27,882 nucleotides of DNA from a virus. Its lineage: Duplodnaviria; Heunggongvirae; Uroviricota; Caudoviricetes. The notes under the pieces are model-generated. The model had not been told where the DNA came from. It did no database searches and saw only the letters and a list, made by a program, of their open reading frames with translations. Positions within the stretch are counted from its first letter, which is position 1. Every line of letters starts with the position of its first letter. The position numbers and the translations under genes were made by a program. The DNA is taken from IMG/VR virus record IMGVR_UViG_2698536647_000011, positions 1-27,882 of that record; one strand, written 5' to 3'. Positions 3,463 to 10,416 of this stretch are shown here, piece by piece.

Positions 3463-5384
3463 TATTCATCTCCAGATAATGCCCGCGCGTAATCCGCCAG
3501 GGTCTTGTTATTGTTACGGCTGCCTTCTTCCTCCAGCAGGCTGGCCAGAAGTGAATCAAGATTTAGCTGCCAGCGGGATATGCTTATACGCAGCGCCGCC
3601 AGTGCATAAACAAAGCAATCGAGCGCCTCATTTCGTCGTTTTTTGCTGTCCCATACGATCTTTTTCTTTCCGTCTACCCATTTTTCCACCTGCTCTTCAG
3701 CTGTTAGTTGTTGGGCCTCTGTTAGATCGTAGATTTCTGGGTTATTCGGGAAATGAACCGCTCCCGCCAGCGGCTCGTCTCTTTGCGCCACCAGCGTGAA
3801 ACGGTTATAAATCTGCTCTTTTGCGGTGTCTGTTCCTACCTCTGTGAGGTAAACACCATTCTTGTTACGCTTGCGTGGCATGTTCGCCACTGGCTTTCCA
3901 TAAACCGACGCCCCCTTTATAGGGATCACACGAAACAGACCGTGTTTTTTTGAGCGGTTGTAGACGATGGTGGGATCAATGCCGCCAATATCCCAGCAAG
4001 TGCGGGATATAACCATTTCGAGACCGTTCTGGCGCTTATACGTCCTGTTGATCGCTTCATCAACTCGAGCGAGAGTCGACTCATCATCATGACGACCCAT
4101 AATGATAATTTTGTCGATAAGCCAGCTTTCCTCTCCCGGCCCCCATCCCCAAACACGCATTTCGTAACGGTCAAGCTGGGAGTCAATACCCGCTGTCAGA
4201 TATGCCACTCGCTCCGGCACAGACGCTTCAAAGTGCTCTTTTCGTTCCGCTAAAACTTCAGCATCGGGTCGTTCACCTATTTTCGGTTCCCACGTTTCGC
4301 CCAGGGTCGTGTTAACGAAAGTTTTTCGCTTACCCGTATCACCTTTTGTTTTTATCCAGTCCTTGACGATCTGCACCCAGGTTGTGAACGGGCTATATGC
4401 GGTCCAGATGTGGAATGTAACGCTGTCAGGAGGTTCAATTTCGGTACCGGATGAAGAAAACCAGTTAAGGCCGTCTCGTGTCCAGATACCTGTTTCATCA
4501 CAAATATACCTGGCCTCCAGAAATTCCAGCTCCTGTTGTTTAATCACACAGGCATTGTGTTCACAGAGGTAGTAAACGCTGGCAGGTTCTCCCGGAGACC
4601 ATTTGAAGCCAAATGGTGTCTCTTTATCACCGAATTTCAGATACTGCTCTTCCCCACAGTGTGGGCATGGAACATGGAACCGAAGAAAATGTTCAGACTC
4701 CTTAGCAGCTCTTTCTATCTGGCACGTACCTTTGACTTTCGGTGTAGATCCGCGAATGGATTTCGGCCATACAGAACCCTCAATACGCTTATCACCCAGA
4801 AAGGTGGGAGAACCTTCTTTCTCGATGTCATCATCGAAAGCGGCGAGCTCGTCGTAGCCAGCCACATCAACTGATTTTTCACGGTAGTTTTTTGCAGCCT
4901 TACCGCCCAGGCACCAGAAACCACGACCATTCGAGAAACGCTTCATGCTCAGCGTATTGTCCCGGTGTTTTTTACCGTACCAGGGAGCAAGCGCCAGCAA
5001 CGTCGGAATATCACGAATGGTCGGTTCTACATGAGACTTCATGAAGTTTTCAGCATCACCGTCGGTTGGTAACCATATTAGGGAGTTACGCTGTTTATGT
5101 TGGATGAAATATGCGTAAACGCCGAGCAACATTTTTGAGTAGCCGACACGAGCCGATTTAACGACATTCACCTCGCGAATATAGTCATTACCCATCGCAT
5201 TCATAATTGCACGCTGAAATGGCAGTGTTTCCCAGCGCCCTTCCTGGTAGGCAGACTCTTTCGGGAGATAATAATTCTCATCTGCCCATTCAACTGCTGT
5301 TTGCGGTTGCGGCCGGTACAGCGAACGTAACCCCGCCCGCGCAGAGTGCTGCAGCCCCTTAACCTGACTGTTCGATATATTCAC
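3462..5384 (-). CDS. A: Terminase large subunit (lambda gpA-like)
   Basis: 640 aa, lambda gpA length and position between Nu1 and W; 5' end overlaps Nu1 3' end as in lambda. Confidence 0.95.
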
Positions 5385-5904
5385 TCAGCAACCCCGGTAT
5401 CATTTCATCCAGCGCAGCTGCCTTGTTCATGGCCTTAATGATGTCCTTCTTGAGGAAATCAATATGTCGGTTCTCCAGCTCCGGGAAGCGCCGCTGAACC
5501 GACAGAGGTATTCCATCGAGAATGCTGGCGATTTCTCCGGCTACCCGCGACAGCACGAACGTGCAGAATGCGGTCTCCACCACTTCAGCGGACTCTTTTG
5601 CATTTTTTAATTCCTGAGCGTCAGCCTGAGCTCGCGTAAGTCGGTGTCGCTCATATTCAATCGTGCCAGGTTGAAGATCGGACTCAGAAGCGATACGGAG
5701 ATCTTCAACTTCCTTCCGCAACTTTTCATTTTCTATAGCTGCATCGCGCGCACTGTACCATTCGATTGCAGCAGCAGATTCAAAGAGAACCTCATTACCT
5801 TTGCCACCACCGCGGACAACCGGCATACCTTGCTCCTGCCAGTTCTGAATCGTTCGGACGCTTACCCCGAAAATTTCGGATAAGCGTTTTTTGTTAACCT
5901 CCAT
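5359..5904 (-). CDS. Nu1: Terminase small subunit (lambda Nu1-like)
   Basis: 181 aa; MEVNKKRLSEIFGVSVRTIQNWQEQGMPVVRGGGKGNEVL... is near-identical to lambda Nu1 N-terminal winged-HTH region. Confidence 0.95.
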   Translation of the reverse strand: MEVNKKRLSEIFGVSVRTIQNWQEQGMPVVRGGGKGNEVLFESAAAIEWYSARDAAIENEKLRKEVEDLRIASESDLQPGTIEYERHRLTRAQADAQELKNAKESAEVVETAFCTFVLSRVAGEIASILDGIPLSVQRRFPELENRHIDFLKKDIIKAMNKAAALDEMIPGLLSEYIEQSG

Positions 5905-6149: not shown

Positions 6150-6878
6150 CTATCGACGGCACTGCTGCCAGATAACACCACCGGGGAAACATTCCATCAT
6201 GATGGCCGTGCGGACATAGGAAGCCAGTTCATCCATCGCTTTCTTGTCTGCTGCCATTTGCTTTGTGACATCCAGCGCCGCACATTCAGCAGCGTTTTTC
6301 AGCGCGTTTTCGATCAACGTTTCAATGTTGGTATCAACACCAGGTTTAACTTTGAACTTATCGGCACTGACGGTTACCTTGTTCTGCGCTGGCTCATCAC
6401 GCTGGATACCAAGGCTGATGTTGTAGATATTGGTCACCGGCTGAGGTGTTTCGATTGCCGCTGCGTGGATAGCACCATTTGCGATAGCGGCGTCCTTGAT
6501 GAATGACACTCCATTGCGAATAAGTTCGAAGGAGACGGTGTCACGAATGCGCTGGTCCAGCTCGTCGATTGCCTTTTGTGCAGCAGAGGTATCAATCTCA
6601 ACGCCAAGCGTCATCGAAGCGCAATATTGCTGCTCACCAAAACGCGTATTGACCAGGTGTTCAACGGCAAATTTCTGCCCTTCTGATGTCAGAAAGGTAA
6701 AGTGATTTTCTTTCTGGTATTCAGTTGCTGTGTGTCTGGTTTCAGCAAAACCAAGCTCGCGCAATTCGGCTGTGCCAGATTTAGAAGGCAGATCACCAGA
6801 CAGCAACGCGCCACGGAAAAACAGCGCATAAAGCACTTCATTAGCAGCGCCAGATAGCGTAATGATTTTGTTACTCAT
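6150..6878 (-). CDS. Hypothetical protein (242 aa) abutting cos; no family recognised
   Basis: Long ORF; internal ATG at 6878 (MSNKIITLSGAANEV...) has RBS AAGGAAA; the annotated ORF start at 6917 lacks one. Confidence 0.55.
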   Translation of the reverse strand: MSNKIITLSGAANEVLYALFFRGALLSGDLPSKSGTAELRELGFAETRHTATEYQKENHFTFLTSEGQKFAVEHLVNTRFGEQQYCASMTLGVEIDTSAAQKAIDELDQRIRDTVSFELIRNGVSFIKDAAIANGAIHAAAIETPQPVTNIYNISLGIQRDEPAQNKVTVSADKFKVKPGVDTNIETLIENALKNAAECAALDVTKQMAADKKAMDELASYVRTAIMMECFPGGVIWQQCRR

Positions 6879-7263
6879 GGAATATTTCCTTTTAGGCGTG
6901 AGCCTGTCGCACGGCAATGCCGCCCGAGAGGTAAACGCAACCTAACGGCATCACCCAGGCTCACTACTGAAAGACTCTCTTTGATGTGCGCGTGCGATGC
7001 GCGTAGAAGACTGATTTATCAACCTGTCTTTATATCAGGATTCATTACCTGACTATTTGTGGGTAAAGTTCGTAGTGCGCTGATCGTGCAAAATGATTTT
7101 AGTTGGGAACAGTTCGCAACTCTGTCCCATAAAAATCAGCATATTCCCATCTATCCCATATCCAGCGCATTGACCATCGGGATACTGAAGGGAGATTCCA
7201 TCATCTCTTAGAAAGATCACCATCTCTTTTGTTTCAATTTGCATATAGCTACCTGGAGGATTT

Positions 7264-7878
7264 ATGAATGCAAGGATTTTCATGGACTATTACCATGAGA
7301 TTGATTTTCCATCTTTATTCGCGAGAGCAGTGGAAAGCGATGACGATGTGGGTACTACATTGCGCATTCACCTACTTTGTGAGCGCATGGTCGAAGCATG
7401 GATATGCGCATGCTGTGACTGCCAAGATCTCTTTGGAAGAGATAAAAACAAACTTTTAATCGAATGTAATACTAAAATATCCATGGCGGGAAACCTGGGA
7501 ATCCCCCCGGAACTTATGAAATCACTTAAAACCATCAACTCAATGCGTAATGACCTTGCACACAATCCATCAATACAAAGCATTGCTGATTCAAGGATCC
7601 AGAGCCTGAAGGATACTCTGACTGAATACTTTAAACAGCATCCAACGGAACCCAGCATGGAAGAATCAAAACTGGGTATTTTTAACGCCGAGAATCAATT
7701 AACCGAAGAAGTTTCCTTAGATAGTGACAGTTCAAAAAACAGACTTAAGTTAATCTTGCTGTTCAGCAAGTTAATGCAGGCGTTAATGCAATTAGTTGCA
7801 GCTAATCATAATGGGCGCTGGGATAACCAATTTAGCCAATTCGTTTACCATGTGACCATGAACGCAACAAAGAGATAA
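7264..7878 (+). CDS. HEPN-motif protein (204 aa), possible abortive-infection or RNase-type accessory gene; opposite strand to phage late genes
   Basis: Contains ...LKTINSMRNDLAHNPSIQ..., an R-x4-H arrangement as in HEPN RNase motifs; AT-rich codon usage unlike flanking phage genes; RBS GGAGGA 4 nt before ATG; followed by stem-loops at 7884-7902 and 7915-7935. Confidence 0.55.
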   Translation: MNARIFMDYYHEIDFPSLFARAVESDDDVGTTLRIHLLCERMVEAWICACCDCQDLFGRDKNKLLIECNTKISMAGNLGIPPELMKSLKTINSMRNDLAHNPSIQSIADSRIQSLKDTLTEYFKQHPTEPSMEESKLGIFNAENQLTEEVSLDSDSSKNRLKLILLFSKLMQALMQLVAANHNGRWDNQFSQFVYHVTMNATKR

Positions 7879-7946
7879 ATCCAAGCCCGTTTTGTACGGG
7901 CTGTTGCATTATCACAGGCACTCAGTGAATGCCTGCTGTAATGCCG

Positions 7947-8144
7947 CTAGTCGTCGAGTTGCAACACACCGTGATCCAGTGATTCTGAATAGGCGATAAG
8001 TCCGGTATAACCGGGGATAATCTCACCATTATCAGCTTCAAATTCAGGAATTGTGCCGGTGGTGATGGTGTATTGAGGCTGGCCATCTTCCTTCGCGAAG
8101 GCTGCCAGGTCTTCAATCTGCTTAGCTGTAAGAACTACTGTCAT
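7947..8144 (-). CDS. Small strongly acidic hypothetical protein (65 aa from second ATG)
   Basis: ORF with GAGGA RBS 6 nt before ATG at 8144; about 12 Asp/Glu versus 2 Lys; downstream of a terminator, so likely own promoter. Confidence 0.4.
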   Translation of the reverse strand: MTVVLTAKQIEDLAAFAKEDGQPQYTITTGTIPEFEADNGEIIPGYTGLIAYSESLDHGVLQLDD

Positions 8145-8161
8145 GCTCATTCCTCAGTTGT

Positions 8162-8186
8162 TAAAAAGCCCCGCGAGTGCGAGGCG
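8162..8186 (-). terminator. Intrinsic terminator after lysis cassette
   Basis: On - strand GCCTCGC-ACTC-GCGGGGC hairpin (7 bp with one G-U) followed by TTTTT. Confidence 0.5.
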
Positions 8187-8357
8187 ATTTGATTGAATTC
8201 TCGGCTCTTATCTCAGCGCAGCCCCTTACTGCGTGCCGGTTGCTCGGTGATGAGCATCAGCGATGAGACATTAAAGCCGACCGAAGGCCAGCGGCGTTCC
8301 TCATGTTGCCGACAGAGCCATATCGACAAGAGGACGAAAACTAGCAGCATGAATCGC

Positions 8358-8861
8358 CTATTGGTTATTCGACAGTCGCACTGATTCGTAAATCCGCTCA
8401 CACGTCATTCCTGCCCGGTAGCTTTCGTCAGATCGTCCAGCATAATATCGAGCTGCTTCTGCAAGGCTTCCGAGCATGTCGGCAAGCATTGCTGCGTTGG
8501 CTCCGGCTGTTTTGCTTCTGACGGAAGTGGCGAGATCTGCGGTGTGCTTTGCGGCGTCCATGTGGGTAGCGAGTTTTGTTGCTTCGGCGCGCAGCTGCTT
8601 AACAGTGGTAGCCAGGCCAGCAGAAGTAACGGCAGCGCTCGCTGCTTGAGCTTGAGCATCTTTAACGGCCTCATCCCGGGCGATTGTTCGCCCTTGTTCA
8701 ATCATACGAGCTGCGGTCTGTGCATTCGCTTCCTGTGAAGATTCCGCGCTATCCCGGTCAGCCCACTTTATTTTCCAGCTGCGGTTCGTCCACTCACTGC
8801 CAGCGAGAAACGAACCTACCAACGCAACAATCACAATGATGCAGATGCCACCCGGCTTCAC
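8358..8861 (-). CDS. Rz: Rz-like i-spanin
   Basis: Position after endolysin; N-terminal TM segment (ICIIVIVALVGSFLAG) then Ala/Gln/Arg-rich coiled-coil periplasmic domain; likely GTG start at 8861 overlapping endolysin stop. Start uncertain. Confidence 0.7.
   Translation of the reverse strand: MKPGGICIIVIVALVGSFLAGSEWTNRSWKIKWADRDSAESSQEANAQTAARMIEQGRTIARDEAVKDAQAQAASAAVTSAGLATTVKQLRAEATKLATHMDAAKHTADLATSVRSKTAGANAAMLADMLGSLAEAARYYAGRSDESYRAGMTCERIYESVRLSNNQ
8405..8659 (-). CDS. Rz1: Rz1-like o-spanin lipoprotein, embedded in +1 frame inside Rz
   Basis: MLKLKQRALPLLLLAWLPLLSSC lipoprotein signal with lipobox Cys, followed by Pro-rich short mature peptide; classic embedded Rz1 architecture. 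Alternative start at 8674. Confidence 0.7.
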   Translation of the reverse strand: MLKLKQRALPLLLLAWLPLLSSCAPKQQNSLPTWTPQSTPQISPLPSEAKQPEPTQQCLPTCSEALQKQLDIMLDDLTKATGQE

Positions 8862-9406
8862 TGGTCTATCCCCCAGCACGTCAGTGCGCTTTCCTGGTCC
8901 CGCCGTTCTACCTGCCCATAACATCCATCCTTCTGGCCCTTGGTCAGGCGGCAATCGCGGCCACCGTCTTTAATCCACCAGCGGATTGCCTCGCATGCAC
9001 CGATGCGGTCACCTGCGTTGATGCGCTTATAGAAGGTCGATGGGAAACATTTTCCGGGGCCGATGTTATATGGGCAGAAAGAAGCGATACCCGCTTTCTG
9101 TGGTTCGGTCAGTGGTACTTTGATATTTCGGTCAACCCACGCCAGCGCCTTGTCGCGTTCAATGGCGTTTACCTGGGCGCATTTCTCAGCTGACAGCTTC
9201 ATGCCCTGTACTACTGGCTTGCCATCAACCATTGTTGCACCACGGCAAATGGTCCAGAGTCCGCCGCCGTCGCGATATGCTGTCAAGCTGTTACCCTCTT
9301 TCTCATCCAGAAACTGATCGAGAATCACGGGTGCGGAAGCCCCGGCAAGAATCAAACCAACGACCGCTGCGCTCAATTTATTCTTCAGCTTTAGAGACAT
9401 AGCCAT
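8858..9406 (-). CDS. R: SAR endolysin (T4-lysozyme-like GH24 with N-terminal signal-anchor-release domain), phage 21 R-type
   Basis: N-terminal weakly hydrophobic Gly/Ala-rich segment (LSAAVVGLILAGASAPVIL) followed by E-x8-D-x5-T catalytic triad (EGNSLTAYRDGGGLWT). Confidence 0.9.
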   Translation of the reverse strand: MAMSLKLKNKLSAAVVGLILAGASAPVILDQFLDEKEGNSLTAYRDGGGLWTICRGATMVDGKPVVQGMKLSAEKCAQVNAIERDKALAWVDRNIKVPLTEPQKAGIASFCPYNIGPGKCFPSTFYKRINAGDRIGACEAIRWWIKDGGRDCRLTKGQKDGCYGQVERRDQESALTCWGIDQ

Positions 9407-9656
9407 TGCGCCGATCCTCCCGTTCTTTCCAGCGGAAATACCAGTTCACTGCACAGGTGATTACCGTGCATGCGATACCGACAATAATTGCCCAGTCGCT
9501 CAGGCTTAACCCTGCAATTCTGTCGGCCAACATCCAGGACACCTCTTTTGCTGTTTTTGCTGTTTCGGCATATGCCTTCGCTGATACACCGCAGCCGGTC
9601 AGCGTGGTGCCTGTTCCATATGAAAGTCTGCTGTAAATGGTGCTCATTCTGGTCAT
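9378..9656 (-). CDS. S: Holin, S21/pinholin-like, with dual-start motif (M-T-R-M)
   Basis: C-terminal ...WAIIVGIACTVITCAVNWYFRWKEREDRRNG resembles phage 21 S (…NLYFKIREDRRKAARGE) from memory; two TM segments; overlaps endolysin start; paired with SAR endolysin. Confidence 0.8.
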   Translation of the reverse strand: MTRMSTIYSRLSYGTGTTLTGCGVSAKAYAETAKTAKEVSWMLADRIAGLSLSDWAIIVGIACTVITCAVNWYFRWKEREDRRNGYVSKAEE

Positions 9657-9885
9657 AGCCTCACCTCCGATTTTTCGGATGGCGCTGTGTGTGTATGAAA
9701 AGGATCAGGCCCTCGGGACGATTTAACAAGAAGGCATGTCGATGATGGTTCCCGTGAGCCTGAAATAGAAAGCCCCAGCAAATGCCTAGGCTAAATGAGG
9801 TGCCAGATCATATATCTGGCCGTATAACCTTGCGTTTGGTATTATTAAATCGCCAAAAGTAACCCTTCAAACACAAGGATTTAAA

Positions 9886-10416
9886 ATGACAAAAAGGAAG
9901 TACCGATTTTATCATGCGGACAGGGGTAACTTGCTGAGCCCTGACATGACAATAATCCCTGTAAATGGCCTCTCTTCATTTGGAAAGCATTATCTCTCCC
10001 GGATAAATAGTGGAAATATGAGCGACGTGCTAGACGAAAATGTACAAAGAGAGATGCTGTATGAAAATGTGCGGATGGAAAATTTCCCATCCCGCCCAAG
10101 CCGATTCTCGTGCCTTTTTGGTGCGAACTCCATTCCTGAAGCGGAAAGCTTCGCCAGAAAGATAATCCCGCAACCGACCACCCCAATTAATATTTATGAA
10201 GTTTTTACTGAAAATTTTGTGATTCTCGATATGAATTGGATGGATTACATAACAACAGATTTCGGTAGTAGGGTTGAATATGCCCGGCAGTACTGGTATT
10301 CATCAATTACCCAGCACGCCCCACTTACCGGCGATAGGATGATACCAACCCTGGAAGTCCTGCTGCCGCTTCCCGTGGAAGTAGGCAAGCAAGTCAGTAC
10401 TGTCGCTTTTGATTAA
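9886..10416 (+). CDS. Hypothetical protein (176 aa), AT-rich accessory gene between Q and holin, antisense to late transcription
   Basis: Clean ORF with AAGGA RBS 6 nt upstream; low GC; no recognisable catalytic motif. Confidence 0.55.
   Translation: MTKRKYRFYHADRGNLLSPDMTIIPVNGLSSFGKHYLSRINSGNMSDVLDENVQREMLYENVRMENFPSRPSRFSCLFGANSIPEAESFARKIIPQPTTPINIYEVFTENFVILDMNWMDYITTDFGSRVEYARQYWYSSITQHAPLTGDRMIPTLEVLLPLPVEVGKQVSTVAFD

Follow-up and report, generated by a model that had tools for sequence, protein, structure and literature searches.

A small acidic protein gene as optional cargo of a hairpin-bounded slot behind the lysis genes of temperate Enterobacterales phages

The closest described relatives of the gene considered here are gp56 of phage N15 and gp53 of phage mEp390, whose family (PHROG 9518) has been catalogued as hypothetical since N15 gp56 and has no member with a known function. 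We have analysed the copy carried on the minus strand, at positions 7947-8144, of a 27,882-nucleotide stretch of Caudoviricetes DNA (IMG/VR record IMGVR_UViG_2698536647_000011, positions 1 to 27,882; the whole of this stretch is called the window in what follows), where it encodes a small, strongly acidic protein. It shares with N15 gp56 and mEp390 gp53 the family, the length, the position behind a spanin gene and the terminator hairpin upstream, and differs from them in nothing essential, N15-type members lacking a five-residue acidic loop (the EADNG region) and having a short C-terminal tail. A looser comparison is with the lambdoid morons, such as lambda bor and those of HK97 and HK022, in the sense reportedly given to the term by Juhala et al. 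in 2000; like them, the acidic gene is an optional gene between core modules of the late region and is followed by a stem-loop, but it lacks its own promoter, runs in the direction of the late operon and stands behind a terminator, as read-through cargo would. Taken together, the comparisons below show that the gene is optional cargo in the first slot past the lysis cassette of temperate Enterobacterales phages, set between two shared hairpins. The features concerned are the following:

7947-8144, minus strand: gene of the 65-amino-acid acidic protein (PHROG 9518), with its TAG stop codon at 7947-7949
8151-8155, minus strand: Shine-Dalgarno sequence GAGGA, in a leader (CTGAGGAATGAGC-ATG) that is kept across loci
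8163-8185, minus strand: intrinsic terminator GCCTCGC-ACTC-GCGGGGC followed by U5, found behind the spanin genes of enterobacterial lambdoid phages in general and forming the left mosaic boundary of the slot
7906-7945, minus strand: 3' boundary hairpin of 40 nucleotides, with outer stem CATTAC...GATAATG and a variable, covarying inner stem
7884-7902, no strand assigned: second hairpin, AGCCCGT-loop-ACGGGCT, between the convergent genes and belonging to the phi80-type HEPN module
7264-7878, plus strand: HEPN-motif gene (phi80 gp52, PHROG 5483) of 204 amino acids, with an RNDLAH (Rx4H) motif and weak CARF_HEPN matches (E 0.004)

The boundaries that define the slot emerge when loci with the acidic gene are laid side by side. 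Upstream, their sequences are unrelated until the hairpin GCCTCGC-AATA-GCGGGGC-TTTTT (with the loop ACTC in the window), past which they share the leader AACAACTGAGGAATGAGC-ATG. The copy in the window has a 7-base-pair stem with 6 G-C pairs (8185-8168, minus strand) followed by TTTTT, and is the main feature of the RNA fold predicted for the leader. It lies directly upstream of the acidic gene in 61 of 85 distinct contexts, N15 included, and the gap from T-run to ATG is 18 nucleotides in 47 of those 61; phi80 has a variant of the same hairpin ahead of rha. A scan of IMG/VR for the exact 23-nucleotide terminator returned at least 120 stretches; loci L005, L008-L099 and L109-L228 contain it. Among the matches listed, a scope that applies to all counts of slot contents given here, 93 of the 111 terminators with enough upstream sequence follow a recognisable spanin, and the acidic gene comes next at 13 of 121 occurrences (about 11%). 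Behind the identical 23 nucleotides the slot otherwise holds some 29 other cargo families at the least, including Rha-like regulators (18), a 183-amino-acid family without assigned function (14), PHROG 1453 (8), a 74-amino-acid family (7) and PHROG 3909 (6), besides Phage_gp49_66 and crAss001_48. The nucleotide sequence of the terminator is conserved although the spanins ahead of it belong to three or more unrelated types. It is near-universal behind the spanin genes of enterobacterial prophages, where it marks the place at which sequences part into the alternative cargo genes and behaves as a mosaic boundary or linker.

The genes on either side of the acidic gene vary among loci. Its upstream neighbour is a spanin, of which there are at least four unrelated types, and holins and endolysins differ as well; the acidic gene stands directly past spanins in lambdoid, N15-like and HK97-like prophages, while the genes downstream fall into 47 unrelated clusters, none of them constant. 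In a Morganella prophage, for which our gene labels are readings of the translations, it lies between a Mor/C-like open reading frame (ORF) and a membrane-protein ORF (a putative holin), with a lysozyme homologue and nested Rz/Rz1-like ORFs. The gene is not a core member of the lysis cassette: it comes after only 13 of the 121 identical post-spanin terminators, and for its product we found no transmembrane segment, no signal peptide and no match to a Pfam lysis family. A correlation with cassettes of signal-anchor-release (SAR) endolysins and pinholins was considered and rejected, many loci having GH19 or GH108 endolysins.

One tenant of the slot belongs to a recognised anti-defence family. 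In three prophages (IMG/VR loci L226, L132 and L182), the same place is taken by a member of the Acb2/Tad1-hairpin family (PF24729; E 1.3e-16, bit score 60.9 with the cut-off at 27). These Acb2-like proteins are 85-97 amino acids long and begin 18 nucleotides past the terminator hairpin. Acb2 is a sponge of cyclic oligonucleotides that counters the cyclic-oligonucleotide-based antiphage signalling system (CBASS), and its placement here suggests that some lambdoid prophages use the late operon to express anti-CBASS sponges. Besides this shared address, the acidic protein resembles Acb2 in being small and probably expressed from the late operon; in sequence the two are unrelated, and the acidic protein has no conserved basic residue. 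A nucleotide-binding pocket is expected to hold some basic residues, so a sponge mechanism is unlikely for the acidic protein. The hairpin-bounded slot may serve as a landmark for mining further accessory genes, and we regard it as a more intriguing by-product of this analysis than the acidic gene itself.

Downstream, the slot is closed by the 3' boundary hairpin, which begins 1-5 nucleotides past the stop codon of the acidic gene in 59 of 106 loci. It combines a constant outer stem and internal loop (CATTAC-A...GA-TAATG) with an inner stem that occurs in at least five versions, pairing being kept in all of them. Double compensatory changes fall at 9 of the 15 pairs of the consensus structure, a figure to be read with the relatedness of the rows in mind, the independent events being nearer the five stem versions. 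Together with the second hairpin at 7884-7902, which looks like a bidirectional terminator, it folds at -35.9 kcal/mol (z = -6.6). Identical 40-nucleotide copies stand behind other genes, in each case within the post-lysis region: rha in phi80, a Mom-like gene in Pectobacterium phage ZF40, and a DUF2560 gene in Klebsiella phages. The hairpin lies at 1814-1853 of locus L001, 1501-1540 of L229 and 1501-1539 of L230, and one match lies in a record labelled as an Elizabethkingia phage. An Rfam search of positions 6900-10000 gave no family match, the 3' hairpin included; this hairpin may act as a terminator without a U-tract, be cut by RNase III or serve in recombination.

The ORF itself spans 7947-8150 on the minus strand and holds two in-frame ATG codons, at 8144 and 8150. 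Since the upstream ATG abuts the Shine-Dalgarno sequence directly whereas the one at 8144 lies 6 nucleotides past it, the 65-amino-acid form from 8144 is the likely true product; mEp390 gp53 is annotated at the same length. The initial annotation had described a product of 65 residues with about 12 aspartates and glutamates against 2 lysines, encoded directly past a post-lysis terminator and convergent with the HEPN-motif gene, and in all of this it was accurate: we count 6 Asp, 6 Glu, 2 Lys and no Arg (isoelectric point 4.05, net charge about -10), the T-run of the hairpin ends 18 nucleotides before the ATG, and the two genes face each other. Acidity is a trait of the family, whose mean net charge over 131 members is -10.3 (-8.5 for the N15 type), and no Lys or Arg position is conserved among them.

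Family-wide conservation, on which the initial annotation had let its proposals depend, was likewise borne out. The match to PHROG 9518, a family that includes both N15 gp56 and mEp390 gp53, covers the full length (E 1.2e-39; residues 2-67 of the 67-amino-acid form against profile positions 1-66 of 66), and identity to homologues falls from 91% in mEp390 and 85% in SaltyDalty to 65% in a Klebsiella prophage, 56% in N15 gp56 and 51% in an N15-like Enterobacter phage. In a large protein collection the family makes up 249 clusters at 90% identity, with 23 more of the N15 type, all named ones from Enterobacterales. An alignment of 26 sequences, down to 53% identity, has 16 invariant columns; the conserved core reads LT..QI..LA.FA..(D/E)GQP.YTI....IP.F...EY.GLIA(Y/F)S.S.EHGVLQL, with conserved polar residues at T6, Q9, Y25, T26, Y46, S53, S55 and H58. 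Among 57 distinct 198-nucleotide alleles, variation is found at 65 of 66 third, 32 first and 19 second codon positions, and the median pairwise ratio of nonsynonymous to synonymous substitution rates (dN/dS) is 0.058; the ORF is a genuine gene under strong purifying selection and did not arise by chance.

An exhaustive phmmer search of 1.84 billion representatives gave 46 matches and added only family members and giant repeat proteins. We rejected the latter as homologues, at least 17 repeats of about 7 bits each summing up the score. Domain fusions were rejected too; the longer entries have N- or C-terminal extensions without an informative Pfam domain and are probably miscalled starts. Searches of the acidic protein against Pfam, NCBIfam and PADLOC profiles gave no match, lysis and anti-defence families (Acb2/Tad1 and others) included, and the family profile reached only E >= 0.23 against PDB sequences. 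In the literature we found no functional mention of N15 gp56 or of WP_001704127, and two papers on accessory-gene screens do not mention N15, mEp390 or spanins.

Structure prediction, which the initial annotation had proposed as a check, was run twice with AlphaFold2 (39 and 52 sequences), and the two models agree in topology, with mean predicted local distance difference test scores of 74.8 and 82.9. Both contain a helix at residues 7-20 and strands at 26-32, 46-52 and about 58-63, so that the acidic protein is predicted to be cytoplasmic, with one helix packed on a three-stranded sheet. We saw no signal peptide, membrane segment or catalytic signature in its sequence, no significant match among solved structures, and no similarity in sequence or fold to a known DNA mimic or anti-defence family. 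T7 Ocr, ArdA, T4 Arn, PBS2 Ugi and T7 gp5.9 are likewise small, phage-encoded, strongly acidic and free of catalytic motifs, but the resemblance appears to stop at size and charge.

How the gene is expressed bears directly on what it might do. Its place in the late operon is past the lysis genes and ahead of cos/Nu1 (5359-5904). We found no sigma-70-like site on the minus strand between spanin and acidic gene (near 8150-8400), the feature that would mark it as a moron with its own promoter, and the 18-nucleotide gap between terminator and ATG leaves no room for one. With no promoter and a terminator immediately ahead, transcription of the gene must pass through that terminator. In lambdoid phages, Q-modified polymerase reads through terminators; the acidic gene would thus be transcribed by Q-dependent read-through, late in lytic growth only and not in the lysogen.

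Against this background, the reading we favour, tentatively and with a probability of roughly 0.4, is that the acidic protein is a late-expressed counter-defence decoy. Once Q-modified RNA polymerase had read through the terminator, a tiny, uniformly acidic protein without enzyme motifs would act stoichiometrically, binding and blocking a surface with positive charge on a protein of the host or of a competitor; a possible type of target is an effector of defence or abortive infection that binds nucleic acids and is active in the late phase of infection. We infer this from the small size, the uniform acidity and the absence of conserved basic residues, which argue against binding of nucleotides or DNA by the protein itself, from the optional, slot-borne distribution, and from the presence in this slot of a recognised anti-CBASS family. 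Late events are what many abortive-infection systems act on, and this too fits a protein made late. Several points weigh on the other side. Late-only expression is unusual for inhibitors of restriction or CRISPR. Several unrelated cargo proteins that use this slot carry as much negative charge (net -7 to -11), so acidity discriminates only weakly, and an argument from one Acb2-like slot-mate is weak, given that Rha-type regulators and many proteins of no assigned role use the slot as well. The DNA-mimic or anti-defence role suggested in the initial annotation has circumstantial backing, from optional cargo in a hypervariable slot that elsewhere carries an Acb2/Tad1-hairpin protein and from a small, uniformly acidic product. 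A broader version would make the protein the founder of a new family of late counter-defence inhibitors, an acidic decoy for a basic host effector that binds nucleic acids, and the slot a hairpin-bounded site dedicated to the exchange of counter-defence genes, the Acb2-like genes being another cargo; this we consider doubtful. The gene is nonetheless a cheap candidate for anti-defence screens, being delimited, strongly selected, probably late-only and found in a slot shared with an anti-CBASS family.

Other roles can be set against the decoy. The gene adjoins lysis genes across four phage architectures, and in the Morganella prophage it heads the series of ORFs that continues with the putative holin, lysozyme and Rz genes, as might be expected of an accessory lysis regulator, for instance a cytoplasmic protein that adjusts holin timing, a role comparable to that of T4 RIII. 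Yet the neighbouring holins, endolysins and spanins are non-homologous among loci and so offer no common partner, the same cassettes and terminator mostly come without the acidic gene (present at about 11%), the gene lies beyond the terminator that closes the lysis cassette, and a slot open to cargo in general accounts for the adjacency; we judge this role unlikely. A late helper for progeny DNA, acting in modification, packaging or end protection (for example as a nuclease inhibitor), would fit the late timing. In N15 the gene (gp56) and the beginning of gp57 (DUF4406) overlap, with a Dcm-type methyltransferase next in line after gp57, and glycosyltransferase-like, methyltransferase or HNH-terminase genes lie downstream at many loci. 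The 47 downstream clusters share no constant member, however, and packaging systems vary by locus (Nu1-type, P27-type Terminase_4, Terminase_2 and DUF1441), which makes such a helper decidedly unlikely. Less probable again is a factor that benefits the lysogen, whether as a classical moron, in superinfection exclusion or in defence: the region is known for morons and the neighbouring cargo includes candidate defence genes such as the HEPN-motif gene, but a gene without its own promoter, directly behind a terminator on the late strand, is not expected to be expressed in a lysogen, and the product has neither signal peptide nor membrane segment.

The initial annotation had also raised the possibility that the acidic protein is a partner (antitoxin, regulator or co-factor) of the HEPN-motif gene. 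In the window the two genes are adjacent and convergent and share the 3' hairpins, and a neighbour with an Rx4H motif recalls HEPN toxin-antitoxin and defence pairs such as HEPN-MNT; unlike those pairs, the acidic protein is no MNT nucleotidyltransferase, the genes are convergent and not co-transcribed, and they do not co-occur elsewhere. The window matches phi80 at 99.9% identity over 7000-7947, a segment that spans the HEPN-motif gene, its divergent 76-amino-acid neighbour and both 3' hairpins, and the match breaks at 7947, the last base of the stop codon of the acidic ORF, where phi80 has rha instead. A mosaic junction thus falls exactly at the acidic stop codon, and phi80 keeps the HEPN-motif gene without its supposed partner, while mEp390, SaltyDalty, a Klebsiella phage and N15 carry the acidic gene without the HEPN-motif gene. 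Across 107 acidic-gene loci drawn from genomes, IMG/VR and phage records, the HEPN-motif gene adjoins the acidic gene in three, all Nissle-type, lies 3.2 kb off in one and is absent within 6 kb in the remaining 103. The 5,426 complete E. coli genomes give the same picture, with the acidic gene in 51 and the HEPN-motif gene in 80; both stand on one contiguous stretch in 20 (Nissle-type strains and the more divergent MEI4O1-23), the HEPN-motif gene alone in about 60 and the acidic gene alone in about 31. The HEPN-carrying E. coli genomes listed are mostly laboratory K-12 derivatives such as DH5alpha, which we take to carry phi80 sequence.

Genomic linkage in other phages, set beforehand as the test of this pairing, was accordingly not found outside Nissle-type loci. 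On these comparisons the partnership is refuted as a general relationship and is extremely improbable for the acidic protein as such; the pairing is an accident of mosaic assembly, and a false lead is removed. The gene that does stay with the HEPN-motif gene is the divergent 76-amino-acid ORF at 7053-7283 (minus strand; phi80 gp51, annotated as a 'putative Fur-regulated protein'), whose 5' end overlaps that of the HEPN-motif gene by 20 nucleotides. The two occur together in all four HEPN-positive loci, as a pair 99.9% identical to phi80, and this ORF seems a more plausible partner for the HEPN-motif gene than the acidic gene.

The lysis cassette ahead of the slot in the window consists of the following genes:

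8358-8879, minus strand: DUF2514 spanin, the last gene of the lysis cassette, with an embedded out-of-frame lipobox ORF (LLSSC) at 8405-8701
8858-9406, upstream of the spanin: SAR-type lysozyme, with an N-terminal hydrophobic segment typical of SAR endolysins
9378-9656, upstream of the lysozyme: holin, matching P21/HP1-type holin families

The embedded ORF at 8405-8701 is consistent with a nested Rz1-type outer-membrane spanin. Between the spanin stop codon and the terminator lie about 170 non-coding nucleotides (8186-8357, minus strand), with a second terminator-like hairpin at 8292-8276 and a segment (8203-8244) that matches a Klebsiella phage at 97.6%. On the far side of the HEPN-motif gene are a gene like N15 gp59 and phi80 gp49 (6150-6917, minus strand; PHROG 17079) and the Nu1 small terminase gene (5359-5904, minus strand), between which, by analogy with phi80, cos should lie. 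Because these packaging genes lie beyond the HEPN-motif gene, late transcription must cross that gene in antisense.

Plasmid matches to the acidic gene number 32, about 25 of them Klebsiella records, most at 61% identity. The copy on the conjugative Klebsiella IncF plasmid NZ_CP139499.1 (locus L241, 4990-5190), 61% identical, is decayed, having lost its ATG and acquired an internal TAA; it adjoins a small TonB-family gene and lies near a MazEF pair, an S-4TM effector gene and an HlyD/peptidase-ABC exporter cluster. The Klebsiella matches are probably the same phage remnant, and Enterobacter records of 38-47 kb look, by size and similarity, like N15-like plasmid prophages. With the Klebsiella copy examined decayed and the Enterobacter records apparently N15-like, a conjugation-linked anti-defence role in plasmid leading regions was left without support.

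Upstream of the holin, on the Q side, the window has a DUF2441 gene (9886-10416, plus strand) where the chromosome of E. coli Nissle 1917 has a DNA methyltransferase. On account of this replacement the window is a mosaic relative of the Nissle-type prophage and not identical to it; the relative in Nissle 1917, a strain used clinically and also engineered, is presumably prophage 3. In the engineered Nissle derivative SYNB1934 (NZ_CP080246.1), the acidic-gene match begins at query base 27, so that the prophage deletion in that strain ends inside the acidic ORF, removing its last eight or so codons.
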